From assembly GCA_025929805.1 (NCBI GenBank), contig JAICPP010000003.1:1-33069 (forward strand): 33,069 bases of DNA, given 5' to 3'. Below, piece after piece: positions 4,079 through 27,742 of this stretch (position 1 is its first letter; every line of letters begins with the position of its first letter). Below the pieces are notes generated by a model that saw only the letters and a list, made by a program, of their open reading frames with translations, ran no database searches and was not told where the DNA came from. The position numbers were made by a program, and so were the translations under genes. The DNA is from Gemmatimonadales bacterium (GTDB taxonomy: Bacteria; Gemmatimonadota; Gemmatimonadetes; Gemmatimonadales; GWC2-71-9).

Positions 4079-5102
4079 ATCCACCGCCGCTCGACCCAAA
4101 GCCAAGCCCAAAGGTTTGGATCCAGCCCGGGCCGAGCAGTACCGTCAGTGGCTACGGCAGATGCTCCTGATCCGCCGGTTCGAAGAAAAGGCCGGCGAGG
4201 CGTACAGCCTGGGTAAGATCGGCGGGTTCTGCCACCTCTACATCGGCCAGGAAGCGGTGGCAGTGGGTAGCCTGGGGGCGCTTGACCCGGACGATTACAT
4301 CACCTGCTCTTACCGGGAGCATGGCCATGCCCTGGCCCGTGGCATTTCCGCGCGAGCAGTCATGGCCGAGCTGTTCGGGAAGGCAACCGGCTGCTCCGGC
4401 GGGAAGGGCGGCTCGATGCATCTATTCGATGCTTCCCTGGGATTCCTCGGCGGGCATGCGATTGTGGGGGCGCACATACCCATCGCGACCGGTATGGCCT
4501 TCGCAATCAAGTACCGCAACACTAGTCAGGTTGCGGTCTGCTACTTCGGTGAAGCCGCGGTGAACAACGGCGCCTTTCACGAGGCGTTGAACATGGCGGC
4601 GCTGTGGAAGCTTCCAGTCATTTATCTGTGCGAGAACAACCGCTATGGCATGGGAACGGCGTTGGAGCGCGCCAGCGCCCTCTACGACATCTCGGAGCGA
4701 GCCTGCTCCTACGATATGGCGAATGAAGTCGTGGACGGACAAGAAGTCCTGACCATGAATGCCGCCATGGAGCGAGCTGTCCAGCGCGCGCGCACCGAGA
4801 AGCTTCCGACCCTGCTGGAAGTCAGAACCTATCGCTTCATGGGCCACTCCATGTCGGATCCGATCCATGGTCATTATCGGACCCGGGAAGAGGTAGAAGA
4901 TCAGCGCAAGCGCGACCCGATCGCGGTCTGGTCTCAACGCCTGATCGCGGACGGGCTGATGGATGAGGCCGCCGTGCGAAGCATGGACAAGGATGTCATG
5001 GAAGAAGTGGAAGACGCGTATCAGTACGCGGATGAGTCACCCGAGCCGGAACTGGATCAGTTGTACACGGATGTGTACGCGGAGGAAGAACGTAAAGAGT
5101 AA
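4071..5102 (+). CDS. pdhA: Pyruvate dehydrogenase E1 alpha subunit
   Basis: IGGFCHLYIGQEA, GKGGSMH, TPP motif GEAAVNNG...ENN, and TYRFMGHSMSDP. Confidence 0.96.
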   Translation: MAESTAARPKAKPKGLDPARAEQYRQWLRQMLLIRRFEEKAGEAYSLGKIGGFCHLYIGQEAVAVGSLGALDPDDYITCSYREHGHALARGISARAVMAELFGKATGCSGGKGGSMHLFDASLGFLGGHAIVGAHIPIATGMAFAIKYRNTSQVAVCYFGEAAVNNGAFHEALNMAALWKLPVIYLCENNRYGMGTALERASALYDISERACSYDMANEVVDGQEVLTMNAAMERAVQRARTEKLPTLLEVRTYRFMGHSMSDPIHGHYRTREEVEDQRKRDPIAVWSQRLIADGLMDEAAVRSMDKDVMEEVEDAYQYADESPEPELDQLYTDVYAEEERKE

Positions 5103-5161
5103 ACGGTGAACAGTAAACGGGCCCGTCGTCACCCGTTCACCGTTTACTGTTGACTGTTCAC
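5092..5161. repeat. Heptamer periodic inverted repeat (GTRAACR family) at pdhA/pdhB junction
   Basis: Left arm GTAAAGA GTAAACG GTGAACA GTAAACG; right arm CGTTCAC CGTTTAC TGTTGAC TGTTCAC. Confidence 0.85.
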
Positions 5162-5174
5162 GTCTTACTTGTCT

Positions 5175-6155
5175 ATGCCAACTCTGACCTACCGTGACGC
5201 GCTCAATCAGGCGCTCCGCGAGGAGATGCAGCGGGACGATACTGTCTTCCTCATGGGGGAAGAGGTCGGGGTTTACCAGGGCGCCTACAAGGTCAGTCGG
5301 GGATTGCTCGATGAGTTCGGACCCATGCGGGTTGTGGATACCCCGATCACCGAACTGGGGTTTGCCGGAGTAGGGGTGGGCGCAGCCATGGTGGGATTGC
5401 GCCCGGTGATTGAGTTCATGACCTGGAACTTTGCTTTGCTCGCCGTGGACCAGCTGGTGAACTCCGCGGCCAAAATGCGTTACATGTCGAACGGTCAGGT
5501 AGGGGTGCCAGCCGTTTTCCGCGGACCGGGAGGCGCTGCGCTACAGCTCGCGGCCCAGCACTCCCAGGCGTTTGAAAGCTGGTACGCTCACATCCCCGGC
5601 CTCAAAGTGGTCACGCCGGCCACACCCGCCGATGCCAAGGGCCTGCTCAAGAGCGCCATTCGGGACGACAACCCGGTCGTCTTCATCGAAGGCGAGATGC
5701 TATACAACACCAAAGGCGAAGTTCCTGATGGAGAGCACGTCGTTCCGCTGGGCCGGGCCGACATAAAGAGAGAAGGCGCTGATGTTACCCTGGTCTGCCA
5801 CTCCAAGACGGTGAGCGTAGCGCTCAAGGCAGCCGAGCAGCTGGCCAGCAATGGCGTCAACCCGGAGGTCGTGGATCTCCGCACCATCCGTCCGCTCGAC
5901 GTGGATGCAATCCTCAACTCGGTGGCCAAGACCCATCGCTGCGTGGTGGTGGAGGAAGGCTGGCCGTTCGCCGGAATCGGCGCGCAGGTAGTAGATCACA
6001 TTCAACGAGAGGCGTTCGACGAACTGGATGCGCCGGTTCTAAGGGTTACCGGAGCCGACGTGCCGATGCCGTACAACAAGCAGCTGGAGCGGGCAGCCAA
6101 GGCTGACCCGGAAAAGATCGTCGCCGCCGTGAATCAGGTACTGTATCGGGAGTGA
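5175..6155 (+). CDS. pdhB: Pyruvate dehydrogenase E1 beta subunit
   Basis: GEEVGVYQGAYKVS, DTPITE, EFMTWNF and AAQHSQ motifs. ATG at 5175 (alternative TTG at 5169). Confidence 0.96.
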   Translation: MPTLTYRDALNQALREEMQRDDTVFLMGEEVGVYQGAYKVSRGLLDEFGPMRVVDTPITELGFAGVGVGAAMVGLRPVIEFMTWNFALLAVDQLVNSAAKMRYMSNGQVGVPAVFRGPGGAALQLAAQHSQAFESWYAHIPGLKVVTPATPADAKGLLKSAIRDDNPVVFIEGEMLYNTKGEVPDGEHVVPLGRADIKREGADVTLVCHSKTVSVALKAAEQLASNGVNPEVVDLRTIRPLDVDAILNSVAKTHRCVVVEEGWPFAGIGAQVVDHIQREAFDELDAPVLRVTGADVPMPYNKQLERAAKADPEKIVAAVNQVLYRE

Positions 6156-6242
6156 GTCGCGAGTCTCGAGTCGTGAGTCACAACAGAGCCATTCTTCTCC
6201 AGCCTATGACTCGTGACCCATGACTCGCGACATGTGACTTAA
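6152..6242. repeat. Heptamer periodic inverted repeat (NNGAGTC family) at pdhB/pdhC junction
   Basis: Left arm GTGAGTC GCGAGTC TCGAGTC GTGAGTC; right arm GACTCGT GACCCAT GACTCGC GACATGT GACTTAA. Confidence 0.85.
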
Positions 6243-6253
6243 CGAAAGGACGT

Positions 6254-7573
6254 ATGGCTACCAAAGTCGTCATGGAAGCCCTCTCGCCCACCATGGAAGA
6301 AGGCCGCCTGGTCGAATGGAAAAAGCAGGAAGGCGAGGCGGTAGCGGTGGGGGACGTGCTGGCCGAAGTGGAGACCGACAAGGCCGTCATGGAGCTGGTG
6401 GCGCGCGCCGGCGGGACGCTGCTGAAGCACATCGTCGAGGCCGGTTCGACGGTGCCCGTCTCCGAGCCGGTCGCGGTCATAGGAGAGCCGGGAGAGGACG
6501 GCGCGGAGGATGGAAAGCGGGGCGGCGGGGCAGCGGGGACGTCCGAAAGGGCCGAGCAACAGGCGACTCAGCCCGCACCAGGGCACAACCAGCCAGCCTC
6601 GATGCCGCCGGCCCCGCCGGCTCGGGCCGCGACCGAGAGCAGACCCTTGACACCTCGGTCCACCGGGGGTCGAGCAAAAGCATCACCGCTCGCACGGCGG
6701 ATAGCAGCCGAGCGGGGGCTTGATCTCAGTATGGTAGCGGGATCGGGACCCGAGGGAAGAGTGGTGGCCCGGGATCTCGAGCATGCTGCCGAGCCGGTCT
6801 CGACGCGTCCGAGCTTCGCGCCTGCGCCGCCTGCGCGTCCTCTGCGTACTTCAGCCGACCAGGCCTATACCGATGTTCCGCTGACCCAGATCCGCAAGAC
6901 CATCGCAAAGCGGCTCGCTCAGTCGCTGGGACCCATTCCCACGTTCTATCTCACCACTGAGGTGGACATGGAGCGGGTCTGGGAGGCACGAGAGGCGATG
7001 CTGCGGAGTCTGCCCCAGCAAGGAGGCGACGAGGCACCGGGGCAGGAGAGCAAGGTTTCCTTCAATGACATCATCATCAAGGCCGTAGCGATGGCGCTTC
7101 GGAAGCACCCTTCCTGCAACGCCTGGTGGCAGGACGACCACATCCGGTACTGGAATGAGGTGCATGTGAGCATGGCCGTTGCCGTGGAAGAGGGCCTGAT
7201 CACTCCAGTGATCCGGAACACCGACCAGAAAGGGCTGCGTGAGATCGCGGCGGAGACACAGGACCTGGCAAGCCGGGCTCGAGAGCGGCGCCTTCGTCCG
7301 GAGGAGTACACCGGCGGAACCTTTTCGGTCTCCAATCTAGGCATGCTCGACATCGACGAGTTCACCGCCGTCATCAACCCGCCCGAGGCCGGTATTCTGG
7401 CGGTGGGCCGCATCGCTCAGAAGCCGGTCGTTCACGAGGAGGCCATTGCCTTGCGGCGCCGGCTGCGGCTTACCATGTCCTGTGATCACCGGGTAATCGA
7501 CGGGGCGACTGGAGCCCAGTTCCTCAAGACCCTGAAGCAAATGCTGGAAAATCCGTTGGCGCTTGTTTGGTGA
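6254..7573 (+). CDS. pdhC: Dihydrolipoamide acetyltransferase (PDH E2), single lipoyl domain
   Basis: Lipoyl motif ETDKA, E3-binding ASPLARRIA...GSGPEGRV and catalytic DHRVIDG. AAAGGA SD. Confidence 0.96.
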   Translation: MATKVVMEALSPTMEEGRLVEWKKQEGEAVAVGDVLAEVETDKAVMELVARAGGTLLKHIVEAGSTVPVSEPVAVIGEPGEDGAEDGKRGGGAAGTSERAEQQATQPAPGHNQPASMPPAPPARAATESRPLTPRSTGGRAKASPLARRIAAERGLDLSMVAGSGPEGRVVARDLEHAAEPVSTRPSFAPAPPARPLRTSADQAYTDVPLTQIRKTIAKRLAQSLGPIPTFYLTTEVDMERVWEAREAMLRSLPQQGGDEAPGQESKVSFNDIIIKAVAMALRKHPSCNAWWQDDHIRYWNEVHVSMAVAVEEGLITPVIRNTDQKGLREIAAETQDLASRARERRLRPEEYTGGTFSVSNLGMLDIDEFTAVINPPEAGILAVGRIAQKPVVHEEAIALRRRLRLTMSCDHRVIDGATGAQFLKTLKQMLENPLALVW

Positions 7574-7575
7574 CA

Positions 7576-7649
7576 GCGTGAACGGGGTAAACAGTGAATG
7601 GGACGGCTGCCTTGCCGCCCCGTTTACCGTTCACCGTTACCGTTCACGC
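7576..7649. repeat. Heptamer periodic inverted repeat (GTRAACR family) at pdhC/lpdA junction
   Basis: Left arm GTGAACG gg GTAAACA GTGAATG; right arm CGTTTAC CGTTCAC CGTTAC CGTTCAC. Confidence 0.85.
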
Positions 7650-7672
7650 TTTTCCACAATCACGAGGAAGAC

Positions 7673-9070
7673 GTGGCCAATCAGTTTGATGTCATCATCG
7701 TAGGCGGGGGGCCAGCGGGCTATGTGTGTGCCATTCGCGCCGCACAGCTTGGACTCGCCACCGCCGTCGTCGAGCGAGACAAGCTCGGCGGTGTGTGCGT
7801 CAACATCGGCTGTATTCCAACCAAGGCTCTCCTCCACAGTGCATACATAGCAAACCTGGTGAGCCATGACGCCAAGGAGCTGGGCGTGGAGGTCGGGAGC
7901 GTGAAGACCGACTACGGTGTCGCCATGCGGCGCTCCCGAAAGGTCTCGGAGCAGAACTCCAAGGGCGTCGAATTCCTGATGAAGAAGCACAAGGTCACGG
8001 TTATCAAGGGAACCGGAGTCCTGGGGCGTAACCGGATGGTTCGGGTTGCCACGGATGAGTATCAGGCGCGGAAAGCCGTGATCATCGCGACCGGTTCGCG
8101 AGTAAAGGGAATACCCCAGATCGGGCTGGAGATCGATAAGAACGCCGTCATCAGCTCGGACGAGGCGCTGTTTCTCGAGAAGCCACCCGCGTCGCTGGCT
8201 ATCATCGGCGCTGGCGCTGTGGGGTGTGAATTCGCCGATATCTTCAACGCCTTTGGCAGCAAGGTAACGCTGATCGAGGTGCTGCCCAGGATACTGCCGA
8301 TCGAGGATGCCGAAGCTTCCGAGGCCTTGAGCAAGAGCTATAAGAAACGGGGCATTACAGTCCTGGCCGGTGTGAAAGTCAAACAGGCGAAAGTCGGCAA
8401 GGAAAAGGTCACCCTCACCATCGATAACAGCGGCAAGAACGAGACGATCGAAGCCGAAAAGGTTCTGATGGCAGCGGGGCGAGCGGTAAACACCGAGGAT
8501 CTGGGCCTAAAGGAAGCCGGTATCCAGCTCACCGACCGCGGCTTCATCAAGGTGAACCTCGACACTCTGGAAACCACGGCCTCGGGGATCTACGCCATTG
8601 GTGATGTCGCCGGTCCTCCGATGCTGGCCCACAAGGGGAGCCGTGAGGGAGTCGTGGTAGCCGAGCGAATCGCCGGCCATCGGCCCCAGCCCATCAAGTA
8701 TGACAACGTGCCGAGTGTCACGTACTGTCATCCCGAGGTCGCGAGTATCGGGGTCACCGAGGATCAGGCCAAGGAACGGAAGCTGGATTATCAAGTAGGA
8801 CGCTTCCCTTTCAGCGCCAATGGTCGGGCACGAACCGCCGGAGAGACGGAGGGATTCGTCAAGATCATTCGAGACAAGAAGTACGGCGAGATCCTGGGAG
8901 CGCACATCGTAGGGAGCCACGCCTCGGAGATCATTCACGAGTTGGCGGTTGCTCGGCAGAACGAGTACACGGTGGAGGAGGTTGACCTGGCTATTCACGC
9001 CCACCCCACGCTTTCTGAGGCGATTGCCGAGGCCGCTTTGGACTCAATGGGACAGGTGATTCATATCTAG
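7673..9070 (+). CDS. lpdA: Dihydrolipoyl dehydrogenase (E3)
   Basis: GGGPAG FAD motif, GGVCVNIGCIP redox disulfide, GAGAVG NAD motif and HAHPTLSE. GTG start at 7673 after GAGGA SD. Confidence 0.96.
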   Translation: MANQFDVIIVGGGPAGYVCAIRAAQLGLATAVVERDKLGGVCVNIGCIPTKALLHSAYIANLVSHDAKELGVEVGSVKTDYGVAMRRSRKVSEQNSKGVEFLMKKHKVTVIKGTGVLGRNRMVRVATDEYQARKAVIIATGSRVKGIPQIGLEIDKNAVISSDEALFLEKPPASLAIIGAGAVGCEFADIFNAFGSKVTLIEVLPRILPIEDAEASEALSKSYKKRGITVLAGVKVKQAKVGKEKVTLTIDNSGKNETIEAEKVLMAAGRAVNTEDLGLKEAGIQLTDRGFIKVNLDTLETTASGIYAIGDVAGPPMLAHKGSREGVVVAERIAGHRPQPIKYDNVPSVTYCHPEVASIGVTEDQAKERKLDYQVGRFPFSANGRARTAGETEGFVKIIRDKKYGEILGAHIVGSHASEIIHELAVARQNEYTVEEVDLAIHAHPTLSEAIAEAALDSMGQVIHI

Positions 9071-9130
9071 GGACCGGGACCAGGGGCCGGCGACCAGGGT
9101 AGAGGTGAGATGTAGAGGGGAGATCGGTGA
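9070..9130. repeat. Short-period tandem repeats after lpdA (GGACCRG units, then AGAGGTG/AGATG-like units) with no mirrored arm
   Basis: GGACCG GGACCAG GGGCCGG CGACCAG followed by GTAGAG GTGAGAT GTAGAG GGGAGAT. Confidence 0.55.
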
Positions 9131-9547
9131 ATGATTGCGAGTGGCCAAATCAGGAGTCCCATAGAGTTTGTGGCAGTGGTGGTTTCCTGCGCGACATCCG
9201 CGGGACTGCTGGTGATCACCGCCACAGTCGTGGGCGTCGACGCGCTGCGCACCGACAGCGGCCCTGCCGATCTCAACCTCTCATTTTACCTCCTGGTGGG
9301 AGGAACCCTCTTCGGCATCCTCCTGGCGGCCTATGCGGCCTGGCACCTGCTCGCGCCGGTGGACTCGACGTATCGGCGCGGCGGGCTCGCCATCGTGAGC
9401 GCCTTCGCCACCACGGCAATCATGTTGATCTGCATTCCCATCCATCAGCTCCTCGGCCGGACCGGTCTTCTGGTCCTCCTCTGCCTTTCCGGGGTGACCA
9501 CCCTGGCCCTGGCCCGCCTTGCTCGCCGGCTGGGTGGGAGCCCATGA
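9131..9547 (+). CDS. Hypothetical integral membrane protein (about 4 TM helices)
   Basis: Four hydrophobic segments. The stop overlaps the lipB ATG (ATGA). Start uncertain. Confidence 0.7.
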   Translation: MIASGQIRSPIEFVAVVVSCATSAGLLVITATVVGVDALRTDSGPADLNLSFYLLVGGTLFGILLAAYAAWHLLAPVDSTYRRGGLAIVSAFATTAIMLICIPIHQLLGRTGLLVLLCLSGVTTLALARLARRLGGSP

Positions 9548-10239
9548 GCCACCTGCTGTCGGTGCGGGACCTGGGACGCCAGCCATATGGCCGGGTTCTC
9601 GAGCTGCAGCGCCGTCTGGCCCGCCTTCGGGCTGAAGGCGCCCTGACAGAGGATATCCTCCTCCTGGTCGAGCATGATCCGGTCGTGACCCTGGGACGAG
9701 GCGCGCGACCTCAGAGTCTGCCGATTCCGCCAGCAGAGCTCGAGCGACGGGGCGTGGAGGTATGCGAGGTTGAGCGGGGAGGAGACGTCACCTTCCATGG
9801 GCCCGGTCAGCTGGTTGGCTATCCGGTGTTGGACCTGAGAAAACATCGACAGGATCTGCACTGGTATCTGAGGGCACTCGAGGAGGCGCTCATTCAGGGG
9901 CTGAATGCCCTGGGACTGGGCGCAGGCAGGAATCCCGGACTCACTGGGGTATGGACCAGGGGACGCAAGATCGGGAGCATCGGGATTCACGTGAAGCAGT
10001 GGGTTACCTACCATGGGTTTGCGTTGAACGTGAATACCGACCTCTCCTATTTCGATCTGATTGTTCCCTGTGGTATCAAAGACGTTACCATGACCAGTGT
10101 GGCCCTCGAGCTCGGGCGCGTCGACGCCGCCTCGCTCTGGGCCGAGACCCGGGATGCGATTGTAGATGGAATGGGGGCAGCATTCGATCTGAGCCCTGCC
10201 CCGGTTGCCTTTGGGAGGCCAATCGGTTTTTCTCCCTAA
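9544..10239 (+). CDS. lipB: Octanoyltransferase LipB
   Basis: LLVEHDPVVTLG, ERGGDVTFHGPGQLVGYP, KIGSIGI, HGFALN and IVPCGI. ATG at 9544 after GGGAG. Confidence 0.95.
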   Translation: MSHLLSVRDLGRQPYGRVLELQRRLARLRAEGALTEDILLLVEHDPVVTLGRGARPQSLPIPPAELERRGVEVCEVERGGDVTFHGPGQLVGYPVLDLRKHRQDLHWYLRALEEALIQGLNALGLGAGRNPGLTGVWTRGRKIGSIGIHVKQWVTYHGFALNVNTDLSYFDLIVPCGIKDVTMTSVALELGRVDAASLWAETRDAIVDGMGAAFDLSPAPVAFGRPIGFSP

Positions 10240-10240
10240 C

Positions 10241-10792
10241 ATGGCTGACTCGACCCGCCGGCCCTCCCCGGAAACCCAGGCTGATCAGAGGATCAGGGAA
10301 ATACTCCGGGCGGCCGACAGTTGGTCCCGCGAAGCACCCCGTGCACTCATGCCCCCTATCCGCGCCGTCTGTATCCGGCTGGCCGAGATGGTCGCGGATC
10401 AGCGGCACTACCTGGCACCACTCCCGGAACCCCAGGAAACCGAACGACGCACCGTCTTGACTCTGGTCGCCGACCGGCTGCGGTCCAAACCGGTTATCGA
10501 GGGGGTGGAACAGCACCTGAAGGAATTGGAGGAGCTTGAGCTGCGCTCGACCGGCTCATGGGCAGTGGTCGCCTCGGCTCAGACCGAGTGGATCACCACT
10601 GCCATCAGGTATCTGGAAGGCTGTGCCGCCCGGCTTCCTGCCGGTGACCGCCCAGATCCCTATTGGGCCGATGACGTGGTCGCCGGGATTATTGCCTCGG
10701 TGCGGGCCCTCATCGGGGTGGACGAGTTGCACGCACGAACCGAGGCCCGCTATTCCGGTCCGGTAAAGCGAGCCTCACCCGAGGAAGAGTAA
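10241..10792 (+). CDS. Hypothetical alpha-helical protein
   Basis: ATG 1 nt after the lipB stop, with plausible globular composition. The 3' end overlaps the convergent peptidase by 43 nt. Confidence 0.6.
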   Translation: MADSTRRPSPETQADQRIREILRAADSWSREAPRALMPPIRAVCIRLAEMVADQRHYLAPLPEPQETERRTVLTLVADRLRSKPVIEGVEQHLKELEELELRSTGSWAVVASAQTEWITTAIRYLEGCAARLPAGDRPDPYWADDVVAGIIASVRALIGVDELHARTEARYSGPVKRASPEEE

Positions 10793-12168: not shown

Positions 12169-12184
12169 ACCTGAGCCTCACAAG

Positions 12185-14919: not shown

Positions 14920-15006
14920 TTGCTGAACTCCACCGTTGCGGAAGCAGGGAAAACGAACACGGAAGAACCGCGTGGTAGACAGCAAAATAAGGTGCCGCAA
15001 CAGCTT

Positions 15007-15035: not shown

Positions 15036-15042
15036 CTCATCC

Positions 15043-15708
15043 GTGTCCGAGAACAATCGGCTGTCGGCGGTCAAGTTCGGTGCTGACGGACTGGTGCCGG
15101 TCGTGACCCAGGAGAGCCGTTCCGGCGACATTCTGATGCTCGCCTACGCCAATCGAGACGCGCTCGACCGCACGCTCTCCACCGGTTTTGCTCACTACTA
15201 CAGCAGATCCCGCGGCACCTTGTGGCAGAAAGGGGAGACGTCGGGGCAGACTCAGCGGGTGACCGAGATCCGACTGGACTGCGACGGCGACGCCGTTCTC
15301 TATCGGGTGGAGCAGGAGGGGCCTGCCTGCCATACCGGCACGAGGACTTGCTTCTCGACCGTAATCGAGCGGACCGGCGGTCTGGCGGACGGCCGGTCGA
15401 TGGAAGAGGATCCGGGCGGCCATCTGCTCAGCCGCCTGGCGCGTACGATTGCGGCACGGGCCCAAGAACGACCGGAAGGATCGTACACGGCGAAGCTGCT
15501 GGCCAGCGGGGTGCCCCGGATCTCGCAAAAAGTTGGCGAAGAGGCGGTCGAGACCGTCGTGGCGGCAAATACGCAGAGTGACGAGCGTCTCGCCTGCGAA
15601 TCAGCCGACCTCATCTATCACTGGTTGGTGCTCCTGCATGCACGTCGCGTCTCACTGGATGCAGTGTGGGAGGAGCTTGAAAAGCGGGGAGAAAAGCGTG
15701 AGCGGTGA
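15043..15708 (+). CDS. hisIE: Bifunctional phosphoribosyl-AMP cyclohydrolase / phosphoribosyl-ATP pyrophosphatase
   Basis: [45 protein letters not shown] and [11 protein letters not shown] start at 15043 is inferred. Confidence 0.95.
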
Positions 15709-15783
15709 ACGTGAACGGTAAACGGGATCTTGCACCGAGGTCGATCTCTCCTCCCGTTCACCGCCAACCCTCACCGTTTACGC
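15696..15783. repeat. Heptamer periodic inverted repeat (GTRAACR family) at hisIE/dnaE junction
   Basis: Left arm GTGAGCG GTGAAC GTGAACG GTAAACG; right arm CGTTCAC CGCCAAC CCTCAC CGTTTAC. Confidence 0.8.
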
Positions 15784-15799
15784 ATTGATATAAAGGGAT

Positions 15800-20292: not shown

Positions 20293-21212
20293 TGAGCCAA
20301 ACAGTCGAAGTCCGGTTCAAGGGAACCCGCAAGGCCTACTTCCTCTGGGAAGATGAGACCGACCCCATTCGGGTGAAGGATGCCGTAGTAGTAGAGGTCG
20401 AGCGTGGGCGTGACCTCGGGCGGGTGACGGCGGTGGGGGACGTTGCCTCGAAGAAGTGCGGCGGTTGCACCAGCTGCGCCGTTGGGGAGACCACCGAGGA
20501 GCCGGCCACGCTCAAGCCGGTTATCCGGCGTGCCACCGCCGAGGACCTCAAGGTTCATCAGGAGATCAGACTGTCGGAGGAAGAGGTGCGGCAAAAGGTG
20601 ATCCAGCGGGTGCGAGCGCACGAGCTGTTGATGAAGGTGAGCGACACCGAGTGGCAGTGGGACCGGAACAAGTTGACGATCTACTTTACCGCCGACAAAC
20701 GGGTCGATTTCCGTGCCCTGGTGAGGGACTTGGCGTCGCTCTTCCGCACCCGGATCGAGCTGCGGCAGATCGGGGTCCGCGACGAGGCTGCCCGCCTGTC
20801 CGGGGTAGGGCGCTGCGGCAGGGAGTACTGCTGCTCCACCTGGCTCAAGGAGCTTTCCCCGGTCAACCTCGGGCTGGCCAAGGACCAGCACCTCTCGCTG
20901 AACCCCTCCCAGATCTCCGGCGGCTGCGGCAGACTGCTCTGCTGCCTCAAATACGAGCACGATTTCTACGTCACCACCCGTAAGCGCTTTCCAAAGGAAG
21001 GAAAGACGCTCAAGACGGCGGCCGGCGCGGAGAAGGTGATTGCGGTCGATATTTTTCGGGAGCGGGTTTTCCTCCGCAGCGACGAGCACGGCTCCCGAAT
21101 CATTCCCCTCGCCCAACTGCGAGAAGAGATGGATCGCCTCGGCGAAGTGTTCCCCGTCAGTGAGTCACGCGCTCAGCGAGCCAGCACGAAGCACCCCGAG
21201 GCACCAAGCTGA
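20289..21212 (+). CDS. ricT: PSP1-domain protein (RicT/YaaT-like)
   Basis: KLTIYFTADKRVDFRALVRDLA, RIELRQIGVRDEA, GRCGREYCC and ISGGCGRLLCCLKYE. ATGA overlap with accA. Confidence 0.9.
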   Translation: MMSQTVEVRFKGTRKAYFLWEDETDPIRVKDAVVVEVERGRDLGRVTAVGDVASKKCGGCTSCAVGETTEEPATLKPVIRRATAEDLKVHQEIRLSEEEVRQKVIQRVRAHELLMKVSDTEWQWDRNKLTIYFTADKRVDFRALVRDLASLFRTRIELRQIGVRDEAARLSGVGRCGREYCCSTWLKELSPVNLGLAKDQHLSLNPSQISGGCGRLLCCLKYEHDFYVTTRKRFPKEGKTLKTAAGAEKVIAVDIFRERVFLRSDEHGSRIIPLAQLREEMDRLGEVFPVSESRAQRASTKHPEAPS

Positions 21213-21218
21213 AGCGGC

Positions 21219-21374
21219 CGCGGACAAACGCAGATGACGTAGATTCACTCATTTGATAGAGCACAACAGAGTGGTTGAAGGAGTACCCCGCCCGTCGTCT
21301 TCATCACCCTGCAAAGCAGTGTTCATCCGGGTTCGGGAACCCGCGAAGCGGGTGTGCTCCGTTGATCTGCGGTT
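21219..21374 (+). other. Candidate structured RNA/leader upstream of metG
   Basis: Nested complementary segments CGCAGAT/ATCTGCG, GAGCACA/TGTGCTC, TGAAGG/TCTTCA, CTGC/GCAG and CGGGTTC/GAACCCG. Confidence 0.4.
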
Positions 21375-21410
21375 AGACTACAGGGGATTCGTTATCTCAG
21401 GGAGAGCTGA

Positions 21411-22925
21411 TTGCCCAAGTTTTATCTGACAACCGCGATCGATTACTCCAACGGCGATCCGCACCTGGGACACGCCCTGGAAAAGGTCGGCGCCGATGCC
21501 ATTGCGCGGTATCGGCGGCTGCGGGGTGATCGGGTCCACTTCCTGATGGGAATGGACGAGCATAGCCAGTCGGTGCTCCAGGCAGCGGCCCGCGCTGGCA
21601 TGCAGCCCAACGAGTGGGTAGATCGGATGGCCGACCGGTTCCAGGAGTTCTGGCAACGCCTGGAGTGTACGAACGATGACTGGATCCGTACCACCGAGCC
21701 GCGCCATGCCGCCGCGGTTACCGAGCTGCTACGGCGGATTCAGCGGCTCCATCCCGACGACCTGTACGTCGCGGAATACGAGGGTCTTTACTGCACCGGC
21801 TGTGAGGAATTCAAGCAGGAAAGTCAGATCGTAAACGGGCACTGCATCGAGCACCCCACCCTGGAGCTCATTCCCACCCGCGAGCGCAACCACTTCTTCC
21901 GGCTCAGTGGTTATCGCGATCGCGTGCTCGAGCTGATTAGGGCGGGCCAGTTCAGGGTCGATCCCGCAATCCGCCGCAATGAGGTCTTGCGGCTGCTCGA
22001 GAGCGGGTTGCAGGACATTTCGGTCTCTCGACTCCGGCAGCCCTGGGGAATTCCCTTCCCCGGCGACCCTGAGCAGACGGTCTATGTCTGGTTCGATGCG
22101 TTGATCAATTACCTCTCGGCGACGGGGTTTCCCGGGTCGGGCTTTGAACGTCTCTGGCCCACTGACCTGCATGTGATCGGAAAGGGGATTACCCGTTTTC
22201 ACTGCGTGGTCTGGCCGGCCATGCTGCTCAGCGCCGGGCTCGAGCTACCGCGGCAGGTGTGGGCGCACGGCTACGTGCAATGGGAAGGCGCCAAGATGTC
22301 GAAGACCAGTGGCACCGCCGTGACTCTCGACGAGGCCATCGACCGTCACGGGCCCGATTCACTCAGGTATTTCCTGCTCCGCGAGGTTGGCTTCGAGGCC
22401 GATGGCAACTTTACCTGGGAACGATTCGACGAGCGCTACACATCGGATCTCGCCGACGGGCTGGGGAATCTGGTCTCCAGAACGCTGGCGATGCTCACCA
22501 AGTACCGGGATGGGATAGTGCCGCCCGCTTCCGCCATCACCGAGCTGGATCGTACGGGGCTGCAGGCGCTCGCCCAATACACTCGCGCAATGGACGCTCT
22601 CGACCTTCGCGCCGGGGCCGAAGCCGCATGGGAACTAGTGTCGTCCGCCAATCTCTACGTGCAACAGACTGCACCCTGGGCCCTGGCAAAAGCAGGTAGA
22701 TCCGACGAGCTGGATCAATCGCTGGCCGCCTTGGCCCGCGTGCTGGGGCGGCTGGCGATTTTAACCAGCCCATTCATTCCAGGGAAGGCTCAGGCCATCT
22801 GGCACATGCTGGGGATGGAGGGAACGGTGGCCGCGGTGCAGTGGGAGTCGGCGGAGCAAACTCCGGTAACAGGCCGGAGAGTTCGCCGGTCCGACGTCCT
22901 GTTTCCCAAGCCCGCGAGCGTGTAG
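21411..22925 (+). CDS. metG: Methionyl-tRNA synthetase (short form lacking C-terminal dimerisation domain)
   Basis: FYLTTAIDY..HLGH, GMDEH, zinc knuckle YCTGCE...C.EH, YVWFDAL.NY and KMSKT. TTG start after GGAG. Confidence 0.96.
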   Translation: MPKFYLTTAIDYSNGDPHLGHALEKVGADAIARYRRLRGDRVHFLMGMDEHSQSVLQAAARAGMQPNEWVDRMADRFQEFWQRLECTNDDWIRTTEPRHAAAVTELLRRIQRLHPDDLYVAEYEGLYCTGCEEFKQESQIVNGHCIEHPTLELIPTRERNHFFRLSGYRDRVLELIRAGQFRVDPAIRRNEVLRLLESGLQDISVSRLRQPWGIPFPGDPEQTVYVWFDALINYLSATGFPGSGFERLWPTDLHVIGKGITRFHCVVWPAMLLSAGLELPRQVWAHGYVQWEGAKMSKTSGTAVTLDEAIDRHGPDSLRYFLLREVGFEADGNFTWERFDERYTSDLADGLGNLVSRTLAMLTKYRDGIVPPASAITELDRTGLQALAQYTRAMDALDLRAGAEAAWELVSSANLYVQQTAPWALAKAGRSDELDQSLAALARVLGRLAILTSPFIPGKAQAIWHMLGMEGTVAAVQWESAEQTPVTGRRVRRSDVLFPKPASV

Positions 22926-23105
22926 AAGTTACCGGATATTCTTGCGAAACTATTTGACAGTGAAAGAGTTATCACTCAATTGACCTCTTGACAATCCTTA
23001 TCGCCGTGAGCCACCTTAGCTTTGAAGGGCGAGCAGACCGGCAGAGGCAGAACCGCCGATCAGCTGCCGGAGGTTTTGAGGAACGTCAGGTACGAGGTGC
23101 GTGTC

Positions 23106-24029
23106 ATGGCCAAACGCCGTTGGACTCTGGTTCTTGTCCCCCACGGGTCGGAGCCCTCGCGTATTGTCGAGGTCTCCTACGGCGTGCTGCGCCTCGCTGC
23201 CCTGGTGGTCGGGGGGATTGTGGTTTTAGCCCTCATGGCGGGTTATGCCACCATCTCTCATACGACTGACCTGTCGCGCGCCGCTCGCTTGCAGGAGGAG
23301 AATGCCTCACTGGCCCGGGAGATCGGCGATTTGCACGGACGGCTGGTCAGCCTGGCCGACACCCTCAGCACCATTTCCCAACGCGATGCCCGGATCCGGG
23401 TCCTAGCGAACCTCGAACCGATCGATCCCCAGGTCCAAGCGGCCGGCATCGGTGGCCCGGGCACGTCTGAGTTGAGCCTGACCGGCCTTACCGGATTGCC
23501 CCGGCGTACCGCTGAAGTGCGGGTCGACCTCAGCGCCTTGATTCGGCGAGCCAACCTGCTGGCCTCGTCGTTCAAGGAAGCCGCCGACAGTCTGGCGCTG
23601 CACAGCGCCAGGCTTGCCGCTACCCCGTCGATCATGCCGACTCAGGGCTGGCTCACCAGCGCGTTCTCGTCCATGCGCTCCCATCCGATTTTGCACATGG
23701 CGCGACCGCACGAAGGGATCGACGTTACCGCACCCATGGGCAGCCCGATTGAGGCGCCTGCCGCAGGGGTGGTCAGCGACGCCGGTTGGGAGAACGGTTA
23801 CGGCAATACCATCACGATCAATCACGGGTTCGGTATCGTGACCAAGTTCGCCCATGCCTCCAAGCTCCTGGTCAAGACCGGCCAGCGGGTCTCGCGGGGA
23901 CAGAAAATCGCCCTGGTGGGCAACTCCGGTCTCGCCACCGGACCACACCTGCATTACGAGGTGCACGTGAACGGCCGGCCGGTGAATCCGTTGAAGTACG
24001 TGTTGCCGGAGGGGGTTGTGACGGATTAG
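23106..24029 (+). CDS. M23 family metallo-endopeptidase with N-terminal TM and coiled coil
   Basis: HEGID (HxxxD), GYGN, and TGPHLHYEV (HxH). ATG at 23106 after GAGGTG. Confidence 0.93.
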   Translation: MAKRRWTLVLVPHGSEPSRIVEVSYGVLRLAALVVGGIVVLALMAGYATISHTTDLSRAARLQEENASLAREIGDLHGRLVSLADTLSTISQRDARIRVLANLEPIDPQVQAAGIGGPGTSELSLTGLTGLPRRTAEVRVDLSALIRRANLLASSFKEAADSLALHSARLAATPSIMPTQGWLTSAFSSMRSHPILHMARPHEGIDVTAPMGSPIEAPAAGVVSDAGWENGYGNTITINHGFGIVTKFAHASKLLVKTGQRVSRGQKIALVGNSGLATGPHLHYEVHVNGRPVNPLKYVLPEGVVTD

Positions 24030-24076
24030 GACGGGAAGGACGGAAGCAGAGAGGCTCCGAAGAGAATCCAGAACTA

Positions 24077-24110
24077 AAGCTCCGAGACCAACTGGTCACG
24101 GAGCTTTTTT
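24077..24110. terminator. Probable bidirectional intrinsic terminator between M23 peptidase and lemA
   Basis: AAAGCTCCG-A-GACCA-AC-TGGTC-A-CGGAGCTTTTTT. Confidence 0.8.
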
Positions 24111-24142
24111 CGTACCTCCTTCCCGTCTTTTCTCGTCTCTTC

Positions 24143-24712
24143 TCAAAACGTCACCTTGGGTGCCTCAGCGGCCCCGGGAGCTGCCTCGAAGTACTCACGG
24201 GGTTTCCCCATGCCAAAGACCTTGGCCGTCAGATTATAGGGGAATCGCCGGATATACGCGTTGTATTCGCCCACTGAGGTGTTGTAGTCCTGGCGCGCGA
24301 CGGAGATCCGGTTCTCAGTGCCCTCCAGTTGATCCTGCAGCTGGCGAAAGTTGGCGCTGGACTGGAGCTGGGGATAATTCTCGGCGATTGCCAGCAGGCG
24401 TCCCAGGCCCTGGGTCAGCTGCTGATTGGCAGCAGCCATTTCAGGTACGTTGCCGGACTGCACCGCGCCACCGAGCCGCGCCCTGGCGTTGGCGATCGAA
24501 ATGAAGACGGTGTCCTCCTGCTTGGTGACCCCCTTCACGGTATTCACAAGGTTGGGAATCAGGTCTGCCCGGCGTTGCAGCTGGGTCTGGATCTGGCCCT
24601 GGGCCTGATTCACCCGCTCGTCCATCGTCTGGATCGTGTTATAGCCGCAGCCGGCAAGGAGGACAGCAACCGCAAGGAGCGGCAGATGCTTGCTTGGGGG
24701 ACGCTTCATCAC
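24143..24712 (-). CDS. lemA: LemA family (lipo)protein
   Basis: LAGCGYNTIQ, QRRADLIPNLV, ENYPQLQS, LEGTENRISVAR and YN...RFP. Confidence 0.93.
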   Translation of the reverse strand: MMKRPPSKHLPLLAVAVLLAGCGYNTIQTMDERVNQAQGQIQTQLQRRADLIPNLVNTVKGVTKQEDTVFISIANARARLGGAVQSGNVPEMAAANQQLTQGLGRLLAIAENYPQLQSSANFRQLQDQLEGTENRISVARQDYNTSVGEYNAYIRRFPYNLTAKVFGMGKPREYFEAAPGAAEAPKVTF

Positions 24713-24723
24713 TGATCTCCGAG

Positions 24724-25428
24724 CTAGAGTTGATCCACGAACCGAGCCGTCTGCTCCACTGCGTTCATGTAGTTCTCGAATTCAGGCGCGGCACACCGCC
24801 ACTCGCGTTCAGAGCGATGGCGTACGACATGTAAGAGATATTCTGGCTCGAACCCGACGAGGGCCGCTGCGGCACCGGCAAGCTCGAGAGCGTCCGGCGG
24901 AACCGGTTTCCCGGCCACGGTGAGGACGCCCCGGAGCAACACCAGGATGGTGGCCGCGCTCTGCAGTCCCAGCGAACCGAGCGCCGCCGGATCTGGAGCA
25001 TACGTGGCATACCCCTGGCGCAAGCGAAGCAGCTTACCTCGAAACTCCCCCTCGAGAGCTTTTCGGAGATCATCCCGGTCCACCTGGACACCCTGCAACG
25101 GGTCCACGCCCCGCAGTACCTGGTAGGAGAGCCGCATATCGGTGATCTCCACCGGAAACGCGTCACTCGCGCGATTCCATTCAGAGTGGCTCAGCACCAG
25201 CGGCGGCTCGGGAGTTTTCTTGCGCCAGCCGGTAAAGGCGCGGCTGAGTGACCGGAGTACGGGTGGCGTCAGTTGCTCTACAACCAGCATCAGGTTGATA
25301 TCCGAGCGCCCGGGGATGAAATCGCCCCGAGCCGCCGAGCCGTAGAGCACGGCGCTGTACCCGTTGCCGAGCACCTGGTCGGCTTCGGCAAGGAAGGGAT
25401 CCACCACCCGGGATACCGTAGCCCGCAT
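24724..25428 (-). CDS. Nucleotidyltransferase-fold (Pol beta-like) hypothetical protein
   Basis: VLYGSAARGDF...SDINL motif followed by a helical C-terminal domain. ATG overlaps the TPM gene stop. Confidence 0.75.
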   Translation of the reverse strand: MRATVSRVVDPFLAEADQVLGNGYSAVLYGSAARGDFIPGRSDINLMLVVEQLTPPVLRSLSRAFTGWRKKTPEPPLVLSHSEWNRASDAFPVEITDMRLSYQVLRGVDPLQGVQVDRDDLRKALEGEFRGKLLRLRQGYATYAPDPAALGSLGLQSAATILVLLRGVLTVAGKPVPPDALELAGAAAALVGFEPEYLLHVVRHRSEREWRCAAPEFENYMNAVEQTARFVDQL

Positions 25429-26282
25429 CAGAACCTTCCCCCTGCACCACCACCGCTGAATCCTCCCCCGCCGCCGAACCCGCCGAATCCTCCACCACCG
25501 CCTCCGAATCCACCGCCACCTCCCCAGCCACCACCGATCCATGGCCCTCCCCAATATACCCGCCCTCTGCGGCGGCGACGGCCACCCATTGCGCCTGACA
25601 TCATGAGCATGAACAAGATGAGAAAGAGGAGGGGCAACAGGTTACCGACGGTGGAGCTGCCGCCTTCGGCATCTACCGGCGGCTGATACGCCGTGAGAGC
25701 GGAGTCCGTGACACCGTACCCCTTTGCAATGACACTGGACAGTGCCCGCACGCCGAGCAACAGCCCGTCTCCATATTGCCCTTCCGACAAGTGGGGCCGC
25801 ATCAGATCACGGATCTGACCCGCGGTTGCGTCGGTGACAATGCCTTCCAGGCCCTGTCCCACTTCAATCCGGATGTGCCCGGAGTTGGGATCCCCCTCTC
25901 GGCGTGGCACCAGCAGCAGCACCACTCCAGCATTGCGGCGGGGATCTCCGATTTCCGCCTGGGCCCCCACGCCCCATTTGCGTCCAATAGCCAACGCGAC
26001 CTGCGCGGCGTCGTACTCGCCGATGGTCGGCAGAATCACCACTGCGATCTCGGCACCGGTCACGCCCTGCAGCCGGCGGATGAGATCTTCCATGTTGCCG
26101 GCTGATGATGGGTCCAGCACTGAGGCGAGATCGTTGACGTAGCCAGTCGGCCGTGCGGGAATCAGGCTGTCGATCCCCGCACGCTGAGCCCACACGCTCG
26201 CAGGAACCACTGCCGGGGCAACCGCTCCGCTAAGTTGAAGCAGTGCCAGGAGAGCGGTAGCTTTGGCTCGTGTCTCCCTCAA
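25428..26282 (-). CDS. TPM domain protein (YgcG-like) with Gly-rich C-terminus
   Basis: GYVNDLA.VL, EIAVV, WGVG, RIEVGQGLEG and C-terminal GGGGFSGGGAGGRF. Start uncertain (TTG at 26282 or 26315). Confidence 0.88.
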   Translation of the reverse strand: MRETRAKATALLALLQLSGAVAPAVVPASVWAQRAGIDSLIPARPTGYVNDLASVLDPSSAGNMEDLIRRLQGVTGAEIAVVILPTIGEYDAAQVALAIGRKWGVGAQAEIGDPRRNAGVVLLLVPRREGDPNSGHIRIEVGQGLEGIVTDATAGQIRDLMRPHLSEGQYGDGLLLGVRALSSVIAKGYGVTDSALTAYQPPVDAEGGSSTVGNLLPLLFLILFMLMMSGAMGGRRRRRGRVYWGGPWIGGGWGGGGGFGGGGGGFGGFGGGGGFSGGGAGGRF

Positions 26283-26320
26283 TCGGTCTCCTGCTGCTGA
26301 CCCCTTCGTCAACATTCAAA

Positions 26321-27055
26321 GTGGTATGCGTTGTCGGACTGGTCGCGGCACTGGCCGGGTGCCGGAGCGAGCGCAGCGTGGCCGTGCGGGTCTCGATACC
26401 CAACGATGACGGGATGGAGACGCCGGCCTCTGGTGTGGGCGTCGTCGCGCTGCCGTACGACCGCGACAGTGTGCTGACCAGCCTCGAAGCCCGAGCTCCC
26501 ACTCCTCGCCCGCCGACTGGGCCCTTGGACAGCTTGTTCGCTCGGTTCCGCGGACCCTTTACGACCTACACCAAGCTCTCGTATGCGGCCTCCGGCCTGC
26601 GCGATTCGCTCAATGCACTCCGGCGAGCACTCGACACCGCGGCACCCGATTCTCCGGTGCGCGGGTCATTCGCCGCCGCCATGCAGCGGCTGAACGACTC
26701 ACTCCGCGCGACTGAGACCCGGCTAGAGAGCGCCCGGGTGCAGCTGGACCGCGCACGGAGCGCATTTGTGCAGCAGAGTGAAAGTCTGCGCGCCGCCATT
26801 CGGCAATGGGAAGATAGCACCTACCGAGGATACGACAGCATCGTCGAACAGCTTACCCGGGGCCGCGAGGCATCGACGGATACGACCGGGGAGGCGGGGT
26901 GGGCCCACTTCAAGGTGGGTCGTGGGGACTGGTGGCTCTATGCCCGGGCCTGGGACACCAGCGATCCCAATGCCGAGTGGTACTGGAACGTTCCCGTGAG
27001 TGACGACACCGTACTCTTGTCGAGCCGCACCGGCCGACGCCGGCCGAGGTACTGA
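26321..27055 (+). CDS. Hypothetical lipoprotein with central coiled coil
   Basis: Lipobox LAGC, heptad helical middle and Trp-rich beta C-terminus. Start uncertain. Confidence 0.7.
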   Translation: MVCVVGLVAALAGCRSERSVAVRVSIPNDDGMETPASGVGVVALPYDRDSVLTSLEARAPTPRPPTGPLDSLFARFRGPFTTYTKLSYAASGLRDSLNALRRALDTAAPDSPVRGSFAAAMQRLNDSLRATETRLESARVQLDRARSAFVQQSESLRAAIRQWEDSTYRGYDSIVEQLTRGREASTDTTGEAGWAHFKVGRGDWWLYARAWDTSDPNAEWYWNVPVSDDTVLLSSRTGRRRPRY

Positions 27056-27694
27056 ATGGTTGAGTTGAGATTTTGGGTCTGGGGTGCGATGACTCTGGTT
27101 CCGTTGACGCTTTCCGCCCAGTCCACCGCACCGCTGGAGACCAGGAGCAAGGGCTCGCCTCAAGCTCCGGTGACTGTATACGAGATGTCGGATTTTCAGT
27201 GTCCCTACTGCAGGGAGTTTGCCCTTCAGACCTTCCCGCAATTGGAGCGGGACTACATTCGCCCCGGAAAGGTTCGATGGGTTTTTATCAACTTTCCTTT
27301 AACCAGCATCCATCAGCACGCTTCCGCTGCGGCCGAACTGGCACTGTGTGCCGGAGAGCAGCGCCGTTTCTGGCCGGTGCATGATCTGCTGTTTCAGCAT
27401 CAGGAGACCTGGGCGCCGTTGAAGGAGGCAGGGCCCTTCTTCGTGTCGTTGGCCGACTCGGCCCGGCTGTCCAAGCCAACGCTCCTCGCCTGTCTCGAGT
27501 CCCCCGAGACCAGAAAGCGAGTCCGAGCTGACGCCGAAGGTGCCGCCCGCTCCGGGGCCTCCAGCACGCCCACGTTTTACATCGAGGGTGGTCTCCTGGA
27601 GGGGGCTCAGCCGATCACCGTATTTCGGCAGGTGCTGGACTCGGTGTATGCGTCGAAGAAGGGGACCGGTGCGCGGGGACCGGGAACCAGGTAA
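27056..27694 (+). CDS. DsbA-like thioredoxin-fold protein
   Basis: KGSPQAPVTVYEMSDFQCPYC, FPL..H, STPTF (cis-Pro loop) and GAQP. Confidence 0.9.
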   Translation: MVELRFWVWGAMTLVPLTLSAQSTAPLETRSKGSPQAPVTVYEMSDFQCPYCREFALQTFPQLERDYIRPGKVRWVFINFPLTSIHQHASAAAELALCAGEQRRFWPVHDLLFQHQETWAPLKEAGPFFVSLADSARLSKPTLLACLESPETRKRVRADAEGAARSGASSTPTFYIEGGLLEGAQPITVFRQVLDSVYASKKGTGARGPGTR

Positions 27695-27742
27695 TGTCGA
27701 CACGCCCGTCCCGGTCCCTGGTTCCCGGCTCCTGGTCCGCAC
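27662..27742. repeat. Heptamer periodic inverted repeat (GGRACCR family) between convergent dsbA-like and CPBP genes
   Basis: Left arm GGGACCG GTGCGCG GGGACCG GGAACCA; right arm CGGTCCC TGGTTCC CGGCTCC TGGTCCG. Confidence 0.8.

Follow-up and report, generated by a model that had tools for sequence, protein, structure and literature searches.

Periodic inverted-repeat hairpins at gene junctions of a Gemmatimonadales genome, probable gene-less relatives of S23p cassettes

A 33,069 nt stretch of DNA, contig C150 of the Gemmatimonadales metagenome-assembled genome (MAG) G000 and referred to here as the window, carries six two-armed periodic hairpins at the junctions between its genes. Each has a left arm of 3–5 degenerate tandem units of 7–9 nt, a spacer of 10–60 nt, and a right arm that is mirrored and pyrimidine-rich. 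These hairpins are probably gene-less members of a family of palindromic elements whose arms match those that bracket genes of the S23p family (PF05635/TIGR02436) elsewhere in the same genome. This assessment concerns identity, that is, membership of the same family as the S23p cassette arms; the steps of the mechanism proposed below are less certain.

The genome is 3.14 Mb in 352 contigs, with 63% G+C, and is 85% complete. All of the relatives of the E2 protein encoded in the window are from MAGs of the Gemmatimonadales or Gemmatimonadota. The genes of the window are housekeeping genes, encoding LipA, pyruvate dehydrogenase (PDH) E1-alpha, E1-beta, E2 and E3, a LipB-like protein, HisIE, DnaE, PSP1, and MetRS, together with an M23 peptidase, LemA, a TPM protein, a DsbA-like protein, and an Rce1-like protein.

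Hairpins of the window

The elements of the window (Table 1) were checked by direct reading, repeat finding, Tandem Repeats Finder (TRF), and folding against shuffled sequences. The design given in the preliminary description of this DNA, a degenerate tandem left arm, a spacer and a mirrored right arm, is borne out in six elements by reading, repeat finding and folding. Fold energies are about −31 to −50 kcal/mol, with z between −4.1 and −6.8 in five of the elements and −2.2 in the sixth, at 27661–27738. As had been described, each of the six has a purine-rich left arm, which touches or includes the upstream gene's stop codon. Pairing in the element at 5092–5168 can take three registers (I2, I6 and I8 in the repeat finding).

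At least seven two-armed elements had been described. Six are confirmed; the array at 9070–9099 is solo, having no mirrored partner in the next 500 nt, and the PSP1/MetRS spacer (21205–21345) holds no hairpin (fold z 0.04). The unit types listed earlier stand for GTRAAC at three sites, for GAGTC, for the GACGGGAAG-type, and for GGGACC at 27661, the GGGACC array at 9070 being unpaired. No intergenic hairpin of the RGCGGR type was found, the sole array of this type found in the window (6512–6542) lying inside the coding region of E2.

Table 1. Periodic hairpins and the solo array of the window, with positions in the whole stretch, folding energies (dG, kcal/mol) and z scores against shuffled sequences.
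Feature	Position	Left arm	Spacer	Right arm	Upstream stop codon	dG	z	Remarks
Periodic hairpin, PDH E1-alpha/E1-beta junction	5092–5168	5092–5121, GTRAACN ×4	5122–5131	5132–5168, NGTTYAC ×5	TAA 5100–5102 (E1-alpha), inside left arm	−31.5	−4.08	
Periodic hairpin, E1-beta/E2 junction	6150–6239	6150–6180, GAGTCNN ×4		6207–6239, NNGACTC ×4	TGA 6153–6155 (E1-beta), within first unit of left arm	−41.3	−5.33	Period 7, 3.7 copies
Periodic hairpin, E2/E3 junction ("element 3")	7576–7650	7576–7602, GTRAACN ×3–4		7619–7650	TGA 7571–7573 (E2), left arm begins 3 nt later	−46.2	−6.76	Followed by TTTTCC, 7651–7656
Solo purine-rich array, GGGACCN ×4	9070–9099 (+)				TAG 9068–9070 (E3), array directly 3'			
Periodic hairpin, HisIE/DnaE junction	15696–15783	15696–15727, GTGAACN ×4		15752–15783	TGA 15706–15708 (HisIE), inside left arm	−41.1	−5.10	
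Periodic hairpin, convergent M23 peptidase/LemA genes	24030–24145	24030–24053, GACGGGAAG-type		24115–24145	TAG 24027–24029, left arm 1 nt past it	−50	−4.07	Right arm overlaps LemA stop
Periodic hairpin, convergent DsbA-like/Rce1-like genes	27661–27738	27661–27691, GGGACCN		27710–27738	TAA 27692–27694 (DsbA-like), left arm mostly within 3' end of ORF	−46.5	−2.15	5 of 200 shuffles fold as well

The longest open reading frame (ORF) for E3 begins at an ATG inside the element 7576–7650 (7598–7684), with the Pfam match starting at residue 30, and the true start of E3 is probably downstream of the hairpin, judging from this match. A public contig from a DNA sequencing run joins the element 15696–15783 (at 15711) to the element 5092–5168 (at 5133) through their GTAAAC repeats.

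Elements across the genome

The genome was scanned with a detector for tandem arrays of three units with at least 70% self-match, at periods 7–9, that have a partner within 160 nt. Complement, reverse and direct partners served as decoys for the reverse-complement partner. At a partner score of at least 0.8 there are 320 arrays with a reverse-complement partner, against 66, 17, and 40 with complement, reverse, and direct partners, respectively. After merging, the census stands at 189 elements for the 3.14 Mb; the period is 7 in 119 of them, 8 in 57, and 9 in 13. Only three of the six window elements pass the detector filter, so the true number in the genome is higher than 189. The scan for mirrored arms of period 7, 8 or 9 proposed in the preliminary description therefore yields a population well above the decoys. 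Partners of arrays occur only within 160 nt, apart from the pairs that bracket S23p genes; between 400 and 1000 nt there is a slight excess of long-range partners (13 against 3–5 in the decoys).

The elements have a marked polarity. The purine arm is first in 144 of the 189, second in two and ambiguous in 43, and both of the purine-second exceptions look like false positives. An inverted repeat looks alike from either strand, so that the first arm met by any incoming gene is the purine one. The stop codon of such a gene is a median of 1 nt from the arm, overlapping it in 75 of 162 cases and lying within 10 nt in 104, and start codons are a median of 32 nt from the element. Gene calls were made with a crude home-made codon model, which missed HisIE, PSP1 and LipB in the window, so the counts by junction type are approximate: an element is present at 36 of the 404 convergent junctions, at 90 of the 1735 co-directional ones, and at 15 of the 385 divergent ones.

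Four to five units per arm is modal and the median spacer is 32 nt, with no correlation between the numbers of units on the left and the right (rho 0.07). The mean fold is −55 kcal/mol over 111 nt. The two arms of an element pair with one another better than they do with swapped arms of the same unit type, or dialect, in all three families compared (p 2e-5, 0.008, and 5e-7). The 189 units fall into 33 clusters, of which 17 recur (two or more members), the largest being GTGAACA with 35, GAGTCGC with 23, and AAGCGGGG with 21. One nested element (C71:7780–7918) has outer arms of GTGAACA/AAGTGAA and an inner array of the GCGGTGA type on one side only.

The preliminary description had the elements lacking U-tracts. 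TTTT is found within 12 nt downstream of only 14 of the 189, which sets them apart from intrinsic terminators, but the statement fails at two of the window elements. The element 7576–7650 is followed directly by a T-run, at 7651–7656, and the spacer of 24030–24145 encloses a canonical intrinsic terminator (24076–24111), with a hairpin at 24076–24107 that has a 15-bp stem containing one mismatch, a 2-nt loop, and then T6.

S23p genes between inverted arrays

A profile search with PF05635 gave seven rows in the genome, representing six loci, which form a series of decay: three are intact (on contigs C128, C20, and C191), one has an internal stop, one is split by a frameshift, and one is a fragment in a 177-nt spacer. 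Inverted arrays stand on either side of all six, at distances of up to about 220 nt, and the purine arm is the upstream one. The arms are GAGTCNN, GTAAGCGG, nested GTGAAAA and GTGAACA, GCGGTAA, GTGAACN, and GACGGGAAG, their units being dialects that are common in both genome and window. Indeed, the window element 6150–6239 shares its dialect with the S23p cassette on contig C128, and 24030–24145 shares its dialect with the decayed cassette on C271. Of the seven array pairs that are 160–1500 nt apart in this genome, five bracket S23p. The C128 cassette has mutM on one side and a secG-like gene on the other, the three sharing a strand, and its left arm starts at the mutM stop codon. In the C191 cassette the two dialects are nested, GTGAAAA outside and GTGAACA inside.

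The S23p proteins are four-helix bundles of TIGR02436 (2e-34), with a match to PDB 2GSC at 1.8e-21. They are homologous to the pentameric XCC0516, and the family resembles Avd of diversity-generating retroelements (DGRs; PMC10053308).

Within the order, PF05635 is present in 37 of 41 genomes. Taking the best locus of each genome, 21 of 30 S23p loci are bracketed, against none of 54 windows shifted by 1 kb. The bracket is also present at 10 of 13 loci in five other lineages, the Pyrinomonadaceae, Saprospiraceae, Chloroflexia, Desulfobacteraceae, and Cellvibrionaceae. In all four Xanthomonadales compared (Xanthomonas arboricola, X. euroxanthea, Luteimonas, and Rhodanobacter) a single S23p gene is in the junction of accB and accC, between arrays of GGGAATN and NATTCCC, and in Moorena five of six S23p loci, judged by eye, are bracketed by heptamers like the short tandemly repeated repetitive (STRR) sequences.

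Gemmatimonadota supply all 80 of the closest relatives of the C191-type gene, and 53 of the 69 with adequate flanks are bracketed. Arms of the GT[GA]A[AG] type are associated with 37 of the 53 C191-type genes and with 2 of 21 in a mixed set made up of the best PF05635 locus per genome. The S23p gene subfamily and the arm dialect therefore travel together.

Orthologous junctions in relatives

The same junctions were compared in 80 PDH loci of relatives (603 kb), 65 of which keep the gene order E1-alpha, E1-beta, E2, E3. Each of the three PDH junctions is polymorphic, having either a spacer of 4–15 nt or a periodic hairpin of 75–165 nt, and the unit differs between species. A total of 83 elements is present in 44 of the 80 loci. 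The purine arm is first in 55 and second in three, two of these three being false positives in coding sequence and one (in L054) being real. Where filled and empty alleles and swaps of unit type had been suggested as a comparison, empty and hairpin alleles and unit swaps are indeed seen, but no allele filled by a gene is present in the 80 relatives; the longest PDH spacer among them is 264 nt and is non-periodic. At the C128 cassette such a comparison is not available, since the mutM/S23p/secG synteny is kept in none of 16 family-level relatives.

The units often continue the end of the upstream gene. E1-beta ends in GGGAGTGA/TAG, followed by arrays of GAGTCNN or GGGTCTA, and E2 ends in TGGTAA, followed by arrays of GGTAAAC, GGTGAGA or GGTAAGC. 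The "empty" E2/E3 alleles are mini-hairpins, AGCGT-AA-ACGC, with a T-run. In 19.9 kb of population DNA from two DNA runs, three of four indel rows are inside the element 7576–7650, a clustering that fits slippage.

The E2/E3 element is orthologous in 11 species, being present in 10 relatives as well as the window. Its identity is 0.75, against 0.42 at the 4-fold sites of the flanking gene, and is the higher of the two in all 55 species pairs, with the loop alone at 0.50; as unrelated arms of the same dialect are already about 0.73 alike, this identity indicates persistence of the dialect rather than constraint at the individual site. None of 24 pairs in the element shows compensatory change, and there are conserved G.U pairs that are valid only in the sense RNA.

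Two further kinds of repeat were noted in the relatives. At the E1-alpha/E1-beta and E2/E3 junctions of L017, L022, L025, L027, L029, L030, and L034 there is a second kind of element, a sequence-conserved palindrome of about 90 nt that begins GTCACCCTGAGCG and ends CGCTCAGGGTGAC and has the look of a repetitive extragenic palindromic (REP) sequence or a miniature inverted-repeat transposable element (MITE). Period-8 arrays of the GCGGGGC type occur within the coding sequence of the E2 linker, in the window (6512–6542) and in L004 (4525–4720) and L008 (4667–4863), and in relatives these gave pyrimidine-first false positives.

Spread across phyla

The exact GTGAAC-type hairpin pattern was found in at least 119 stretches, with other dialects beside them. 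The matches listed include Acidobacteriota (up to eight loci per MAG), Saprospiraceae, Chloroflexota, Betaproteobacteria, Desulfobacteraceae, and Cellvibrionaceae (Gammaproteobacteria), and among these the seventh base of the unit is C in Acidobacteriota, G or A in Gemmatimonadota, and A or T in Saprospiraceae. Arrays of GGGAATC ×4 are present in Xanthomonadales, cyanobacteria, Gemmatimonadaceae, Thermoanaerobaculia, Elusimicrobia, and one MAG of Thermoplasmata.

RNA, RNase III and candidate mobilizers

Of 90 co-directional junctions of the genome, 48 fold more stably in the sense orientation and 42 in the antisense one (p 0.53). In the PDH spacers of the relatives the sense fold is favoured, 64 to 44 (p 0.006), almost wholly from the E2/E3 junction (36 to 17). 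RNA evidence comes from Logan contigs of two metatranscriptome runs of one study, which are uninformative on ends and strand and give no cover over parts of the window. These contigs span both arms of 5092–5168 (contig 4922–5162) and of 7576–7650, stopping at the 3' foot of each (5162 and 7641), positions that a DNA contig reads across. As a sign of transcript ends this is a weak hint, and an RNA processing or stability code, one of the two readings offered in the preliminary description, is only weakly hinted at. A scan of the window against Rfam matched no family.

RNase III was sought in the genome with PF14622 and PF00636, neither of which gave a match, and PF14622 is present in none of 21 relatives. 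TIGR02191 is found in none of 46 genomes of the same class, nearly all of which are at least 97% complete and three of which are single contigs, compared with 14 of 15 genomes from other classes of the phylum. Loss of RNase III was considered as a permissive cause of the elements. Three class genomes that lack it have 0–2 weak elements per 120–140 kb, which is no more than in classes with RNase III (1 in 381 kb), so the loss is not sufficient.

Two candidate mobilizers were also set aside. The only match to RVT_1, sought as a dedicated reverse transcriptase, is of the truncated group II-intron type (C32:1–1470), and the single gene for a Y1 transposase (PF01797, C109:19234–19572) is without flanking periodic arrays.

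Relation to known elements

Heptamer arrays and S23p elements have each been described before; the papers by Rehm et al., Warrier et al. and MacGregor are cited here from the portions of text available. In Xanthomonas campestris and X. axonopodis there are 70–75 convergent pairs per genome of GGGAATC heptamer arrays of about four units, in which the G-rich array is on the coding strand, at most 50 nt from the stop codon or over it, the length and sequence vary between close species, and the repeats are transcribed (Rehm et al. 2015, PMC4692102). The elements described here are alike in having two convergent arrays of about four units close together (modal 4–5 units, spacer 32 nt), with the purine array on the coding strand and close to the stop codon or across it (104 of 162 gene ends within 10 nt). 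They differ in that there is one unit type in Xanthomonas, whereas the dialects that recur here number at least 17, with periods of 7, 8, and 9, and in that the main dialects GTGAACN and GAGTCNC, unlike GGGAATC with its four G-tracts, are without G-runs. The available text of PMC4692102 stresses G-quadruplexes and makes no link with S23p. Arrays of that published type are the ones found here on either side of the S23p gene in the four Xanthomonadales.

The intervening sequence (IVS) in the 23S rRNA of Coxiella burnetii has a terminal stem of about 28 bp, the 5' arm of which contains GACAGAT ×3–4, the number varying between strains, and a decaying ORF for an S23p four-helix bundle in its loop; RNase III cuts midway along the stem, and the element is termed selfish in that paper (Warrier et al. 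2016, PMC4990558). That paper also cites the pentameric toroid structure of the Xanthomonas protein. The window elements share with the IVS the terminal inverted repeats that form a long stem and the tandem heptamer-type units in the arms. An S23p ORF in the loop is absent from the seven sites of the window, and is found at the six other loci of the genome. IVSs are inserted in helix 25 or 45 of 23S rRNA. Whereas the Coxiella IVS occupies helix 45 and RNase III excises it, the elements here are at the stop and start junctions of protein-coding genes, are mostly gene-less, and are in a class in which RNase III was not found.

The heptamers of Beggiatoaceae (TAACTGA) and the STRR sequences of cyanobacteria are direct repeats, with one indirect set out of 169, and are mostly just upstream of start codons (MacGregor 2015, PMC4679880). 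As far as that text describes them, they resemble the present elements in being intergenic and patchily distributed across phyla, in overlapping upstream stop codons, and in having forward stops in all three frames. In MITEs, near-identical copies carry terminal inverted repeats and target-site duplications; no two spacers here are alike.

The REP, BIME (bacterial interspersed mosaic element), and REPIN (REP doublet forming hairpins) sequences of Proteobacteria are abundant imperfect palindromes between genes, placed at gene ends, whose transcripts fold into hairpins. Each REP is a copy of the same conserved sequence, not an array of tandem units, and REPs are tied to a Y1 transposase, the REP-associated tyrosine transposase (RAYT). 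The present elements are like them in their abundance at gene ends, but have unrelated spacers, and the Y1 transposase gene of this genome is not flanked by arrays.

The view that these hairpins are an undescribed system was therefore overstated, both paired heptamer arrays (PMC4692102) and S23p IVSs with heptamers in the stem (PMC4990558) having been published. In a literature search of partial coverage, no paper was found that connects S23p genes with hairpins of heptamer arrays at the junctions of operons. A link between paired heptamer arrays and the IVS/S23p elements is supported by the present data, and is not in print as far as the literature was searched.

Origin of the elements

If the window hairpins do belong with the S23p cassettes, the full-length form would be a purine array of 3–5 units of 7–9 nt, an S23p gene, and then the reverse-complement array, a cassette designed like the Coxiella 23S rRNA IVS and sitting after one gene's stop codon and before the ribosome-binding site of the following gene. 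The elements would be co-transcribed with the operon, folding into hairpins of −30 to −50 kcal/mol. The stem would loop the insert out, keeping the stop codon and the next start codon close, and the insertion would thereby be tolerated. The arms may change by replication slippage. The elements would be selfish or close to neutral and would not form a host "code", although individual copies, that at E2/E3 for example, may have been co-opted as a partial terminator or a protector of the 3' end. Since RNase III was not found in the class, the stems are presumably not cut by canonical RNase III in this lineage, and excision by that enzyme, the known fate of the IVS, is unlikely here.

Several results weigh against the membership of the gene-less hairpins in the S23p family. 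PF05635 gives no row on the window contig and there is no S23p remnant at its seven sites, nor is there a cargo gene at the three PDH junctions in the 80 relatives. Gene-less copies exceed gene-bearing ones by about 30 to 1. Among 108 spacers of at least 25 nt there are no similar pairs, and a search of gene-less spacers for S23p remnants or similarity to cassette interiors found only the arm repeats of a nested element. A detectable bracket is absent at 9 of the 30 loci of the order and at 3 of the 13 in other phyla, and none of those 13, in genomes rich in GTGAAC hairpins, has GTGAAC arms. No cassette of the GGGACCN dialect, which is that of two window sites, was found in the 85%-complete genome. 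The kin compared are not independent, so that the Fisher test overstates the link between subfamily and dialect. No IVS is present in the 23S rRNA of four relatives (genes of 2948–2958 nt against a model of 2925 positions), and the likeness to the IVS is thus one of design and not of location. The reverse order of events, with S23p genes landing in hairpins that were already there, fits equally. The suggestion in the preliminary description of a cassette system with empty sites is thus supported at the bracketed S23p loci, in this genome, in its relatives and in other phyla, and not at the PDH junctions or by the spacers.

It is unlikely that the hairpins are home-grown simple sequences, formed by local slippage of a seed at the gene end and template switching between the arms of a small hairpin, unrelated to S23p, whose genes merely insert by preference into such loops. 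Slippage is a published idea for the excess of heptamers (Mrazek 2007, cited in the available text of PMC4692102), and the unique spacers, the uncorrelated numbers of units on the two sides, the units that continue the last codons of E1-beta and E2, the mini-hairpins at "empty" E2/E3 alleles, and the clustering of indels in the arms would all be expected. Local slippage would not, however, have a few dialects dominate unrelated loci (35, 23, and 21 of the 189 for the three largest), nor the GTGAAC design recur in Acidobacteriota, Bacteroidota, Chloroflexota, and Proteobacteria. The dialect also outlasts synonymous saturation at the E2/E3 junction, and both the purine-first polarity and the association of S23p subfamily with dialect are unexpected from slippage alone.

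Selection by the host for RNA elements, acting as intercistronic stabilizers of mRNA, partial terminators or processing sites in the manner of the enterobacterial REP, is quite improbable. The E2/E3 element speaks for it, with orthologues in 11 species, a T-run after it, G.U pairs valid only in sense RNA, and a more stable sense fold in 36 of 53 relatives, and the ends of the RNA-library contigs at the 3' foot and the enrichment at convergent junctions, from crude gene calls, point weakly the same way. Against it, sense and antisense folds do not differ across the genome, TTTT seldom follows, the same junctions are empty in many relatives, and there is neither compensatory change, nor a match in Rfam, nor an RNase III found in the class. 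That the arrays are simple-sequence repeats that form G-quadruplexes, as proposed for the GGGNATC repeats of Xanthomonas and Nostoc, is very improbable. The modal 4–5 units would match the four G-tracts needed, GGG runs are present in AAGCGGGG, GGGACCN, and GACGGGAAG, and GGGAATC forms quadruplexes in vitro (PMC4692102, available text), but the commonest dialects are without G-runs, and the partner arm would compete by pairing, given the mean fold.

Returning to the elements as relatives of S23p cassettes, the combination of unique spacers, shared dialects and the purine-first rule suggests that arms may be added at the site rather than copied. It is conceivable, though as a joint proposal improbable, that the arms are "written": Avd-like pentameric S23p machinery would extend the two 3' ends at a nick or break beside the stop codon with purine-rich units, one unit of 7–9 nt per S23p subunit, which would match the modal 4–5 units, and fill-in and joining would then leave on the top strand a purine array, the local spacer, and a pyrimidine array. 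Such a step would explain the polarity of 144 to 2, the unique spacers, the uncorrelated arm lengths, and the imperfect mirroring, and also why there are few dialects genome-wide, why these follow the S23p subfamily, and why they outlast saturation of synonymous sites.

Other features of the window

A 13-nt tandem, GTAGAGGKGAGAT ×2, is present at 9099–9124, 3' of the solo GGGACCN array, and is followed by a hydrophobic ORF of 138 codons (9131–9547) between E3 and the LipB-like domain. The long ORF 9127–10239 matches LipB only from residue 155. Tandem repeats of 18 and 30 nt (TCCACCACCGCC-type) at 25461–25536 are in a minus-strand coding region between the LemA and TPM genes, and probably encode a Gly-rich protein repeat, as judged from their sequence.

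Significance

Hairpins of this kind fill operon junctions and alter the final codons of housekeeping genes, by extension or rewriting. They also break short-read assemblies, through chimeric joins, and can mislead gene callers and the choice of start codons. Beyond this, three puzzles that have been treated separately, the excess of heptamers, the origin of the rRNA IVS, and the function of S23p, appear to be faces of one element. Were the arms indeed written, this would be a bacterial repeat-addition system, telomerase-like, that seeds hairpins through operons, and it would explain why heptamer repeats are, as has long been noted, in excess in bacterial genomes. The S23p family is very widespread and is a relative of the Avd of DGRs. 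The present genome is a compact test bed for it, having three intact cassettes that differ in dialect, together with some 190 gene-less copies in matching dialects, and if S23p recognizes its own arms, its function becomes directly testable.

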